A stretch of DNA of 64,000 nt, taken from positions 20,832,001 to 20,896,000 of the forward strand of contig OX597834.1 of assembly GCA_951406725.2 (NCBI GenBank), read 5' to 3'. This document shows, piece by piece, positions 6,189-15,850 of this stretch (its first letter is position 1; every line of letters starts with the position of its first letter). Position numbers and translations under genes: made by a program. Source of the stretch: Octopus vulgaris. Its lineage: Eukaryota. The notes beneath the pieces are model-generated. The model made no database searches, was not told the origin of the DNA, and was given only the letters and a program-made list of their open reading frames with translations.

Positions 6189-6597
6189 AGGAAAGCAGAC
6201 ATAGTCTTAATTGAGAAAGAAAGCAAACTATGCTGGATCATAGATATAGCATGCCCAGCTGATAACAAGGTATATGATAAGGAAGAAAGAAAAGTTGATA
6301 GATATGGCAGGTTAGCTTGAGAGGTTAAGCAGTTGTGGTTGATGCAAAAGGTGCTAGCAGTCCCAATAATTGTTGGAGCCTTGGAAACAGTGAATAAAAT
6401 TCTTGAGAAGAACATGGAACAAATACGGGCTGCAATAAGGGTGGAGCACTTGCAGAAAACAGCACTGCATGGAACAACTTGAATGCTCCGGATGGTGCTC
6501 AAAAAATAAGGGGTGTTACCATAGTTCACTGGTAGTGAACAGCTGGCACCATAGCACATCTCCAGTGTTAGAAGTTGTGCAAAGACAATAAATAATA
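6189..6597 (+). pseudogene. RLE endonuclease domain of an R4/Dong-like LINE, 5'-truncated, two in-frame stops
   Basis: RKADIVLIEKESKLCWIIDIACPADNKVYDKEERKVDRYGRLA*EVKQLW...VPIIVGALETV...LQKTALHGTT*MLRMVLKK* (stop 6507-6509); (P)D..D..K..Y motif. Confidence 0.9.
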
Positions 6598-6614
6598 ACG
6601 ATGATGATTTCAAT

Positions 6615-6780
6615 GTTTGGTACAAGGCCTGCAATTTCAGGGGTACTTATTTCATCAACCATGAAAGGATGAAAGGCTAAGCTTACTTTGATGGAATTTG
6701 AATTCAGAATGTAAAGATGACCAAAATGTCACTTAGCATTTTGTCCAGCATTGAAAGGATTCTGCCAGCACACCACCTTG
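6615..6780 (-). mobile_element. SINE family B
   Basis: gaaaggatgaaaggc...ggaatttgaattcagaatgt...tagcatttt...tctgccagc. Confidence 0.75.
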
Positions 6781-6839
6781 ATGATGATGATGATAACAAC
6801 AACAACAACAACAATAATAATAATAATAATAAAAATAAT

Positions 6840-7060
6840 AATCTCAAGGTTTAAAACAAACATAATTTTGGTTTTTTGGGGGGGTTTAAAAAAATTTTTT
6901 TTTTAGACATTTACTAGTACAACACACAAAAAAGGCCCCAAATATATGGCACACTAGGCATAACAACAACGTGAACTTCCAACCTGTTGTCTCTTGAGGT
7001 CTCTGGGTGAGACTTGGAGCCAACTTGTACAAATATAAAGCAAAAGTCAAACAGAATAAT
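6840..7060 (+). mobile_element. Second copy of the 3' UTR of the element at 5928-6188
   Basis: aatctcaaggtttaaaacaaac...cttccaacctgttgtctcttgaggtctctgggtgagacttggagccaacttgtacaaatataaagcaaa is nearly identical to 5989-6160. Confidence 0.9.
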
Positions 7061-7123
7061 AATAATAATAATAACAACATCAACAATAACAATAACAATA
7101 ATAATAATAATAATAATAATAAC

Positions 7124-7320
7124 CTAAGAATTACCAACAGAATGGGGCTGTAGCAGAAAACAGCCTTGTCAGGGACAGCAAGGATTCTAAGTGGGGTAAT
7201 GGAAAGTTGGAGGAGAACGAATGACCTCAAAGGACCTTTGGCTATTTGATATGGTTCTTTCTTTTGGTGTAGTACCAGTATAATATCTGCCAGGAGAAAA
7301 GCTTCAATTAGATCAATAAT
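7124..7320 (+). mobile_element. 3' end of a third RLE-type LINE subfamily
   Basis: LRITNRMGL*QKTALSGTARILSGVMES, then UTR and (AAT)n. Confidence 0.75.
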
Positions 7321-7324
7321 AATA

Positions 7325-7540
7325 ATCCTTTCTACTAAAGACACAAGGCCAGCAATTTTGAGAGATGGGGGAATAGTCAACTACATTAAGCCCAGTGTTA
7401 CACTGGTACTTAATTTATTGAACCCGAAGGAGTGAAAAGCTAAGTTGATCTTGATGGGATTTGAACTCAAAATGTAAAGAGAAATGAAATGCGGCAAAAC
7501 ATTTTGGCCAATGTGCTTACCATTCTGCCAGCTTGCCAAT
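7325..7540 (-). mobile_element. SINE family B
   Basis: aatcctttctactaaagacacaaggcc...ctggtacttaatttat...tttgaactca...tctgccagcttgcc. Confidence 0.8.
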
Positions 7541-8018
7541 TATAAAAATAGTAGGTACTGGGGTTTATATTTGCTCAACTAGATTCTTCAAGGTGATGCT
7601 CCAGCATGGCTGCTGTCCAATGACTGAAACCAGTAGCAGCGAAAAGAAATAAAATCTAGCAAGGAAAAGGATAACCCCCACCAACCAGCACTACCAAATT
7701 TGAAACCAAAGTCAACTTGACTTTCTCCAAATAGCATAGAATTTCTTGAAGTGATTTGTATAGAAATCACAAGGAAATGATGGTAAATTGGTGCCTCGTG
7801 TTTCTCTCAGGAAGTGGAAGTGGCACCGGGGCCAAATTGCTGTTGCATGCTGCCGGTAGCAGCAGCTGAGCTAATAGATCACGTCGGTTGTAAGAAAGTG
7901 AATTTAACATATTGACGCGGAATGAAAATGAAGCTATGCTGAAAATCAATTGTGGAGTTATTGAACACAAAAAGGAAACGAAAACAAAATAATAATAATA
8001 ACAATAATAATAATAATA

Positions 8019-8057
<39 letters not shown>

Positions 8058-8069
8058 TCACCGACCGAC

Positions 8070-8208
8070 AGACTTCTATCTCTCTTTGGCCTTTCATCTC
8101 TTGCCATCTCTCTCGAATTCTCTTACTCTTTCTTTCTCTCTCTTAATACATCCTTACCCTTTCCCCTTTCTCTTTTTCCGCTCTCAACATCTTACTCTTC
8201 ACTCCCTT

Positions 8209-8249
<41 letters not shown>

Positions 8250-8419
8250 TTCTCTGTCTTTCTCCCCTCTCATTCACATGCTCTGTCTCATTACATCTGT
8301 CATTCCTTTCCATCGCTCTCCTTCTCGTTCACCCTCTCTCTCAAGTTCTCACTCATTCTTCTTGATCTCTACTTTCATTTTCATCACTTCACATTCTTTC
8401 CAACATCCTTCCACTGTTT

Positions 8420-8463
<44 letters not shown>

Positions 8464-8680
8464 GTTCTCTCACTGTTACACTTTATCTATCTCAATTTCT
8501 CATTTTCTCCATCTCTTTCTCTCCTCTTTCACACTCTCTATCTCTCAGCCACTTCTCACTCCTTCTCCATACTCTCTTACTCTTTCACTCTCTTCACATT
8601 ACTTTCCTTCCAACCCTCTGCTCTCTCTCTCTCTCTTTCTCTCTCTCACTCCACCCTCTCCCCACCTCCAACCAACCCTT
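8070..8680. repeat. Polypyrimidine CT-rich low-complexity tract
   Basis: Direct inspection. Confidence 0.9.
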
Positions 8681-8894
8681 ACTGCGGCATTTACCTATCA
8701 GAAGACTCTGTAATATATCTTTCTTTGACTGAGAAGAAAGGAAGAGGGAGAAATCTGAGAGATATCAATAAGTTAAGGAAAAGCTGTTGATCAATAGCTA
8801 TCTGTTAGACAGACATGCTATAACTTACCTGTAATTATCTATATCTATCTACCTGTCTATCCCTATCTCCCTGCCTATCTATCAATATCTACGT

Positions 8895-9230
8895 CTGTGT
8901 GTGTGTATGTGTGTGTGTAATATACACGCAAGTTCAAATGCAAATAGGTTTTCTCTGCACGCATGTGATTGTGTGTATGTATGTGTGTAATTGTATGTGT
9001 GTAAGTGTTTGTGTGTGTTTGTTAGTTTGTCTCCATCTATAAATGTGTTTCTAATTCTGTGTGTGTCTGTATGTATGTATTGATGTATATGCGTGCATGT
9101 ATTTTTGTATATATATGTATGTGCATGTATTATACATGTATATTTATGTATGTGTATATGCATATGTATATATATATATATATGTATATATTTATATATG
9201 TGTGTATATATATATATATATGTATATATT

Positions 9231-14394: not shown

Positions 14395-15455
14395 GGCAGT
14401 GAGCTGGTAAAATTGATCAATCGTAGGATAAAATGCTTTGTGGTATACCTTTTGGATCGTTATGTTTTGTGTTCAAATCCTGCTGAGGTTTAATTTTGCC
14501 ATTCCTCATTACAGGATTGATAAAATAAATACCAGTTTAGCACTGGGGTCAGTGTAATCGACTTAACCCCTCCCCCACCAGAATTGGGAGCCTCATGGCA
14601 AAATTGTAAACCCTTATTATTGTTAATTAGAACAAAGCGATGAGTTCGCAGAATCGTTAGCATGCTGAATGAAATGCTTAGCAGTATTTTGTAAGGCAGC
14701 GAGCTTGCAGAAACGTTAGCACGCAGGGTGAAATGCCTAGCTCTATTTCGTCTGGCGTTTCATTCCGAGTTCAAATTCCGACGAGGTCGACTTTACCTTT
14801 CATCCTTTCGGGGTCGATTAAATAAGTACCAGTTACGCACTGGGGTCGATATAATCGACTTAATCCGTTTGTCTGTCCTTGTTTGTCCTCTCTGTGTTTA
14901 GCCCCTTGTGGGTAGTAAAGAAATAGGTATTTTGCTCCTCACTCCAATTTGAGTTCAAATTCCACTGAGGTCAACTTTGCCTTTCCTCCTTTCGGGTTTG
15001 ATAAAATAAGTACCAGTTGAACACTGGGGTCAATGTAATTGACACATCTCCAACCCCACAAGCTGTCCTTGTGGTGGAAACTTGAAATAATTATTACTGA
15101 TTAGAACACCAAGCAAAATGCTTAGAGATATTTCATCTGTCTTTACATTCTGAGTTCACATTCTTCCAAGGTTGACTTTGCCTTTCATCCTTCAGGGATC
15201 GATAAAACAGGTACCAGTCAAGCACTGGGGTCGATGTAATCGACTTTCCCCCTCCCCCAAATTCCAGGCCTTGTGCCTATAGTAGAAAGGTTTATTAATT
15301 AGAACACCGGGCAAAATGCTTTGGGGCATTTCATCAGAGTTCAAATTCTGCCATGGTCAACTTTGCCTTTCATCCTTTCGGGGTCAATGAAAACCAGTTG
15401 AGCACTGGGGGGTCAATGTAATCAACAAGTCCCCTCCCACAAAATTTCAGGCCTT
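14395..15455 (+). mobile_element. Head-to-tail cluster of about five SINE B copies, including a nested young copy at 14693-14925
   Basis: Repeated gagttcaaattcc...gtc(g/a)actttgcctttcatcctttcggggtcgataaa-aagtaccagtt...cactggggtc(g/a)at modules. Confidence 0.9.
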
Positions 15456-15461
15456 ATCAGA

Positions 15462-15682
15462 AAGTACATTATTTACATTTGACAGATATTTGTCCTCATC
15501 TTGTTTGTTGTTAACACAATGTTTCAGCTGATATACTCTCCAGCCTTCATCAGGTGTCCTGGAGAAATTTCGAACTGGGTTTCTCATTTCTAAGGTACTT
15601 TTCAATGTTGTTGTTGTTATTATTATTATTATCATTATTATTATTATCATTATTATTATTATCATTATTATTATTATTATTA

Positions 15683-15713
<31 letters not shown>

Positions 15714-15850
15714 CATTATTATTATTCAGGTCACTGCCTGGAATCGAACTTGGAATGGTGGGGTTAGTATCCTGTGCTTTTAACCACTATGCCATATGCC
15801 CGTGGACAATTATGAATTTTAGGGCTTATAAATCTAATATTTTCCGATCC
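15462..15850 (-). mobile_element. Composite element: tRNA-like head, (AAT)n tract, hammerhead-bearing tail
   Basis: Box A TGGCATAGTGG (15784-15794), box B GTTCGATTCC (15740-15749), hammerhead at 15513-15558. Confidence 0.75.
15513..15558 (-). ncRNA. Minimal type I hammerhead ribozyme motif
   Basis: GACAC CUGAUGA A GGCUG gagaguauau CAGCU GAAAC AUU GUGUU; stem I GACAC/GUGUU, stem II GGCUG/CAGCU. Confidence 0.75.

Follow-up and report, generated by a model that had tools for sequence, protein, structure and literature searches.

The repeat carried on the minus strand of the window (the whole 64,000-nucleotide stretch of octopus DNA that was analysed) is almost certainly the 5'-truncated 3' end, or pLTR, of an autonomous Penelope-like element (PLE), in which a tRNA-derived segment (here called the head), an (AAT)n tract and a hammerhead motif follow one another. 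The 5' ends of genomic copies pile up at the edge of the head, and on balance we favour a promoter-defined origin for these ends, with the tRNA-derived A and B boxes acting as a promoter when a pLTR stands upstream of a full-length copy.

The window copy and the element to which it belongs

A genome of 2.8 Gb in 227 contigs was searched. The window holds a single piece of the family, approximately 90% identical to the family consensus, with an alignment that begins in the piece at 15826..15850. The first-pass annotation had described a minus-strand order of tRNA-like segment, (AAT)n, linker and hammerhead, and all of these parts were found as described, while the 50-nt 'leader' placed before them is the end of a protein-coding frame followed by the start of the 3' UTR and not a separate leader. 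The features of the window copy are as follows, those of the hammerhead being read from the sequence.

15826..15850, minus strand: last codons of the ORF for RT and a putative endonuclease, with its TAA stop (15828-15826); other copies continue upstream, with the same final residues
15826..15850, minus strand: 5' truncation point of the window copy, adjoining an (AAT)n flank
15802..15825, minus strand: start of the 3' UTR, with a 5-nt deletion in the window copy
near 15807-15801, minus strand: putative transcript start, placed from the 5'-end pile-up of genomic copies
15729..15801, minus strand: tRNA-Arg(ACG)-derived segment, with A box at 15794-15784 and B box at 15749-15740; cloverleaf pairing lost
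15607..15726, minus strand: (AAT)n/(AAC)n tract, the (AAT)n itself at 15726-15617; expanded in the window copy
15585..15587, minus strand: ATG, predicted to open the ORF when in an upstream pLTR; its frame passes the hammerhead into the body
15513..15558, minus strand: minimal type I hammerhead motif, abundant in its ancestral form and with the features of the published descriptor (PMC4209133)
15558-15554/15517-15513, minus strand: hammerhead stem I
15553-15547, minus strand: hammerhead core
15545-15541/15530-15526, minus strand: hammerhead stem II
between 15518 and 15517, minus strand: predicted hammerhead cut
15464..15512, minus strand: 3' end of the pLTR, ending at the first of two family 3' end clusters, without the optional tail of about 30 nt

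Three partial copies of another, very common repeat adjoin the 3' end of the element at window positions 15020-15460; this repeat has a B-box-like motif on the plus strand and recurs in many of the loci retrieved.

In copies retrieved with the head as seed, homology does not stop at the supposed leader but extends upstream over distances reaching 1.5 kb and more, and this additional sequence encodes the end of a retroelement ORF. Overlapping copies assemble into a unit of about 2.66 kb in the order N-terminal region, RT, C-terminal region and 3' UTR with the tRNA-like segment, (AAT)n and hammerhead. In consensus coordinates the tRNA +1 lies at 2293, corresponding to window position 15801, and positions above 2566 are one short. 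The RT domain was matched by Pfam RVT_1 (E 2.8e-10, at locus L067), in an ORF that is continuous with the unit via overlapping copies, and eight database proteins, none of them named, match the ORF at 53-62% identity. The C-terminal region resembles, by eye, the GIY-YIG endonuclease of PLEs; Pfam returned no family for four stop-free stretches covering this region or lying near it. The putative placement in the Penelope/Poseidon clade follows N-terminal and linker motifs characteristic of it. The continuous ORF and the RVT_1 match, together with the insertion signature set out below, bear out the Penelope-type RT that had been proposed for the repeat, and the suggested search for an autonomous PLE sharing the tail has thereby yielded an ORF-bearing element. 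The idea of a short stand-alone element did not hold, as the head and ribozyme lie within the terminal repeat of an autonomous element and the window copy itself reaches the ORF.

Among 30 near-full-length loci, which retain the ORF 5' end, 22 have a same-direction 3'-end piece (pLTR) directly upstream, although only 4 of these 22 upstream pLTRs contain the whole head. The optional extension of about 30 nt that some copies carry at the 3' end corresponds to the start of the element body. From the pLTR ATG upstream of the hammerhead, an open frame runs through the motif and into the body in six of nine scorable near-full-length copies, the chance of a stop-free frame being 0.019. A GT...AG stretch of 38 or 47 nt at consensus positions 2520-2567 (window 15479 onward in full-length copies) spans the boundary between pLTR and body, and its splicing could join a downstream ATG to the ORF; such an intron is unnecessary, however, because the upstream ATG already gives an open frame. 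Three of the long copies (L071, L079 and L081, at G000:C3:140.42-140.46 Mb) lie approximately 16-17 kb apart with shared flanks and represent a segmental tandem duplication.

The first-look candidates numbered 4,801 for the tail and 1,333 for the head, and exact 20-mer counts rose from 1,081 for a word upstream of the head to 5,148 for one inside it and 9,064 for one past the AAT tract. Dividing 9,064 by the share of copies that keep that word (15/60 and 9/30) gives approximately 30,000 3' ends as a rough lower bound, and the count of 1,081 gives, again as a rough lower bound, approximately 4,000 copies reaching the end of the ORF. In a census of 90 loci, taken in genome order from the list of exact hammerheads, there were 43 divergent pairs, 43 single copies, three loci with a same-direction neighbour and one convergent pair. 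A target site duplication (TSD, a direct repeat of at least 8 nt) frames 23 of the 43 divergent pairs, compared with 2 of 43 in the control, and the optional tail is present on exactly one arm in 37 of the 43. An inverted partner, a TSD and a one-arm tail are all described features of PLEs (PMC8557442, PMC3846280).

The (AAT)n tract varies in length across the family, and nested insertions land in it. Sequences found there include LINE-like 3' ends from no fewer than three families, plus an additional repeat (at L099, L110 and L144; L107, L112, L118 and L158; L143; and L109, L150, L153 and L297), a pattern pointing to AAT-targeted insertion. From the look of their frames, the LINE-like inserts may be of the restriction-endonuclease type of LINE. 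Candidates for 'alternative heads' on the same tail were rejected, being LINE-like 3' ends or other inserts in the (AAT)n tract, in several cases with the true head further upstream.

Hammerhead motif and tRNA-derived head

The CpG-intact, 41-nt ancestral form of the hammerhead has 1,117 exact matches in the genome and its reversed control has none, in agreement with the initial view of the window motif as a CpG-decayed core whose ancestor had a palindromic stem III. In this ancestral form, a stem I of 5 bp is combined with the conserved core, one extra base ahead of a stem II closed by G-C, and a palindrome at the position of stem III. The same features are listed for the minimal hammerheads of PLEs (PMC4209133), which act as dimers and cleave slowly (PMC6765202). 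Two CpG-type changes in the window copy have removed the closing C of stem II and the G of stem III, and for this reason the window hammerhead is probably dead. Monomer folding of the window motif was no better than that of shuffles (z -0.93), as expected for a minimal hammerhead. Rfam at gathering score made no call on the window, and Rfam E-value scans across six loci and one further stretch matched no family copy to Hammerhead_1, returning only microsatellite or inverted-repeat artefacts. A genome search with the Hammerhead_1 model scored 73 candidates and returned six places, all from other families. The Rfam comparison that had been suggested thus gave no match for this family, and the motif call follows the published description of minimal hammerheads (PMC4209133) instead.

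Approximately 5% of the copies studied here have changed to a CUGAAGA core, which is also found in short hammerhead motifs of a further family at L177 and L178. A second hammerhead family (L175, L176, L179 and L360-L389; 982 first-look candidates) has a long stem II, occurs as divergent pairs and carries at least 740 nt of non-coding sequence upstream. There were no ORFs or A and B boxes found within 1.5 kb in this second family, which is possibly a non-autonomous PLE derivative.

The consensus head aligns without gaps to a host tRNA-Arg(ACG) gene, with 47 of 73 positions identical and a score of 71 against a shuffle maximum of 41. Scores were 71-74 against tRNA-Arg(ACG) and at most 58 against eight unrelated tRNA types from 30 further loci, in a comparison that covered a subset of isotypes and used a degenerate search pattern favouring Arg. 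The invariant bases of the A and B boxes have been kept, the acceptor, D and T stems no longer pair, and ARAGORN did not call the tRNA-like segment in the window. The tRNA-Arg(ACG) genes of the host include a tandem array with a spacing of approximately 206 bp (L191-L209, at G000:C2:211.89-211.91 Mb), some members of which have a TCG anticodon on the same body.

Head and tail occur together, in the same direction, at 24 of 30 head-seeded loci, so that the association of head and ribozyme reported for the window extends to other copies. The six tail-less loci are truncations, a duplication or a nested insertion, and among them there was no separate SINE joining this head to another body. In the family consensus, the 3' half of the piece corresponding to 15802..15825 repeats the first 13 or so nucleotides of the head in inverted and imperfect form, and the two can pair into a hairpin. 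The presence of this inverted repeat just upstream of +1 suggests that a SINE-like RNA was the likely source of the tRNA segment, acquired when RT folded back and switched template.

Origin of the 5' ends at the head

The 5' ends were scored in 184 copies from 118 loci, after removal of two duplicate rows from 186 and leaving out L028 (a duplicate of L005), L383 (a duplicate of L366) and the window copy itself (L001). Of the copies that reach consensus position 2312, 72 of 84 end within 2276-2312, a count in which copies from one locus are not independent; when loci are counted instead, 71 extend to this point and 59 of them end in the interval. The end rate is 0.040 per nt within 2276-2312, compared with 0.0043 just downstream and 0.0047 upstream, a ratio of 9.0. 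An independent head-seeded set gave a similar picture, with 23 of 30 copies ending at the head edge. Genome-wide word counts drop 4.8-fold across the edge, which is less than the sample suggests; the hammerhead-seeded sample favours young copies. The ends have modes at 2286 and at 2293, the tRNA +1, which places them 7-14 nt ahead of the A box. In sixty copies for which the seed lay upstream of the head, truncation is even, at 0.0006-0.004 per nt, and the 5' extents of 29 control copies of the second hammerhead family spread from 8 to more than 700 nt, these being rough values from pairwise extents only. The window copy is among the minority that pass the head edge. This pile-up makes the promoter role that the first-pass annotation had given to the head likely.

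A possible course of events under a promoter in the head is that the RNA would start about 7 nt upstream of the tRNA +1 or at it, would probably be made by Pol III and would traverse the hammerhead into the ORF. The PLE RT would then initiate internally near the start of the ORF, using two sites separated by some 30-40 nt, as found in vitro for the anole element PAc, and copying back to the RNA 5' end would give the abundant copies of approximately 250-290 nt, often as divergent pairs. Longer copies, such as that in the window, would come from a tandem transcript on which RT starts at the downstream junction of pLTR and ORF. Hammerhead cleavage, which would need a dimer or the help of a protein, would not be required for insertion. 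In the case of PAc, the two internal initiation sites of RT lie near the ORF start and the tail is left between them, insertion needs an RNA that reaches 172 nt into the ORF, and hammerhead cleavage is not needed (PMC11167929); the 172-nt rule derives from this element of another species.

The small number of upstream pLTRs that include the whole head counts against a promoter role. In three raw RNA runs from one study, of an organism labelled as related, there was no pile-up of read starts or ends on the element. Each run gave 6,358-8,959 reads matching the element, divided roughly evenly between the strands, of which 79-85% continue into unlike sequence; these reads are passenger transcription only.

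The stronger proposition, that the whole autonomous PLE is transcribed by Pol III from the captured tRNA promoter in its pLTR, seems to us doubtful. If true, an uncapped RNA would need to be translated and SINE-like copies in the tens of thousands would derive from its run-off cDNAs, amounting to a SINE arising within its own motor element. The 2.66-kb sense consensus contains no run of four T (T4), where shuffling of synonymous codons leads to an expectation of 2.9 (P 0.03), the corresponding values under first-order and second-order Markov nulls being P 0.07 and P 0.2. A-rich retroelements are generally T-poor. The absence of T4 allows, and does not show, full-length Pol III transcription, and its absence from the consensus of the short unit is uninformative by itself.

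The pile-up would also arise, in what is the most serious rival reading although we consider it unlikely, if the tRNA segment were an inert passenger and the palindrome at its 5' edge stalled RT or made the cDNA fold back and prime itself. The head edge does form the strongest cDNA-terminal hairpin and the second strongest local RNA hairpin (32 nt, -11.6 kcal/mol), a coincidence that counts against the promoter reading, as does the observation that two of the three copies reaching a -10.3 hairpin near 1050-1090 end there, a tiny sample. Fold-back junctions are common both at the head edge and at a second palindrome, at 2309 (recurrent, five loci), and palindromes at the inverted junctions of PLEs have been read as evidence of self-priming (PMC3846280). 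However, most ends lie at or beyond the loop, where the 3' arm has already been copied (55 in 2276-2300 and 17 in 2301-2312), and a hairpin of -9.8 kcal/mol upstream of the head stops only one of 40 copies, while another of -16.8 is spanned by most of the 5'-ORF matches listed. None of the seven apparent ends at 2279 has a templated upstream arm; all seven are fold-backs copied from the head rather than templated UTR, as expected if the cDNA had run out of template, and the ends that give rise to fold-backs lie at 2286 or later, a point at which the hairpin amounts to only -2.6 kcal/mol. Further, 14 of the 48 ends in 2285-2300 have no inverted partner.

In place of promoter-defined ends on a single element, the short copies might constitute a true SINE with a cycle separate from that of the autonomous element: Pol III would make their RNA and the PLE protein would copy it back in trans. 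We judge this rather improbable. Short copies outnumber long ones approximately 5-fold by exact word counts, start at the head with intact A and B boxes and have a consensus unit free of T4, and non-autonomous derivatives of PLEs are known (PMC8557442). The head is also found, however, inside the 3' UTR of the autonomous element, the window copy included. A comparison of 92 short with 60 long copies revealed no fixed differences and the same polymorphisms, in samples that were seeded differently and in which subtle subfamilies could be missed: A is present at 2356 in 25 of 92 short and 18 of 57 long copies, a 9-nt indel is common to both, and the small contrasts between them follow the seeding bias. 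Because the two length classes have their variants in common, there is no sign of a separate SINE lineage. Approximately 10 of the 92 short copies extend a few bases into the ORF body, and if the PAc rule holds, short copies do not contain the downstream ORF sequence that the protein needs.

The retrozyme-like behaviour raised at the outset, in which hammerheads would cut multimers and the units would circularise and undergo rolling-circle reverse transcription, is very improbable for this family. The ancestral motif has all the published features of a minimal hammerhead, and animal retrozymes have been argued to descend from pLTRs (bioRxiv 10.64898/2026.07.22.740005); against this, the census found a same-direction neighbour at only three of 90 loci and no arrays, and copy ends are not concentrated at the cut, which lies no more than 1 nt from 2 of 33 5' ends in the tail and coincides with none of 152 scored 3' ends. 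RNase P-type processing, in which the tRNA-like segment of a long Pol II transcript is the site of cleavage and the piece downstream becomes the template, would account for the 5'-end mode exactly at the tRNA +1 (nine copies, and 6 of 30 in the head-seeded set) and is the least credible reading, given that the acceptor, D and T stems no longer pair and that an equal mode lies 6-7 nt upstream of +1.

Comparison with known systems

If the head is a promoter, the genomic copies give a natural map of transcript starts, and the internal-initiation model becomes testable in vivo; SINE-like copies would also arise from PLE machinery without a separate SINE lineage, and annotation based on the head would mis-file a family of approximately 30,000 copies as a SINE. 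Octopus retroposons of tRNA-Arg origin were reportedly described by Ohshima and Okada in 1994, and the head may or may not be among them. Within the literature searched, no tRNA-derived promoter turned up in the pLTR of a PLE, and the family may already be listed in Ohshima and Okada 1994, SINEBase, Repbase, Dfam or a subscription paper. Hammerheads in PLE terminal repeats are well known, so that the ribozyme alone is ordinary, and because 235 Hammerhead_1 hits have been counted in a squid genome (PMC6962438), cephalopod hammerheads are already on record.

The combination of a small-RNA-derived sequence with a retroelement terminal repeat is shared with Cassandra, Helenus and Ajax, which are non-autonomous LTR elements (PMC10886601), whereas the octopus element is an autonomous PLE. 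The Schistosoma SM-alpha repeat likewise places a Pol III-type promoter before a hammerhead in one repeat, and is non-coding, often tandem and of demonstrated cleavage (PMC6765202); the octopus unit, by contrast, is part of a coding element, is dispersed as single copies or divergent pairs and has a hammerhead whose cleavage is predicted. With the animal non-LTR retrozymes it shares a type I hammerhead and pLTR ancestry, although these are defined by tandem units and the octopus family is without arrays (bioRxiv 10.64898/2026.07.22.740005); a term search of that preprint gave no mention of tRNA, octopus or cephalopods.

The closest likeness is to the EN+ Penelope/Poseidon PLEs PAc of Anolis (PMC11167929) and Pen2a of Adineta (PMC3846280). 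As in these elements, there is a single ORF for RT and then, putatively here, endonuclease, the pLTR holds the start of the ORF and a hammerhead with its cut downstream of the start codon, and insertions have a 5'-truncated inverted partner, a TSD around the unit, an optional one-arm tail of 30-40 nt and AT-rich targets. The described promoters of pLTRs are of Pol II type, TATA/Inr-like in Pen2a (PMC3846280) and intron-overlapping in Penelope (PMC8557442). Unlike PAc and Pen2a, the octopus pLTR has both an (AAT)n tract and a tRNA-derived segment that carries A and B boxes, and it is at the 5' edge of this segment that the majority of copies end sharply.
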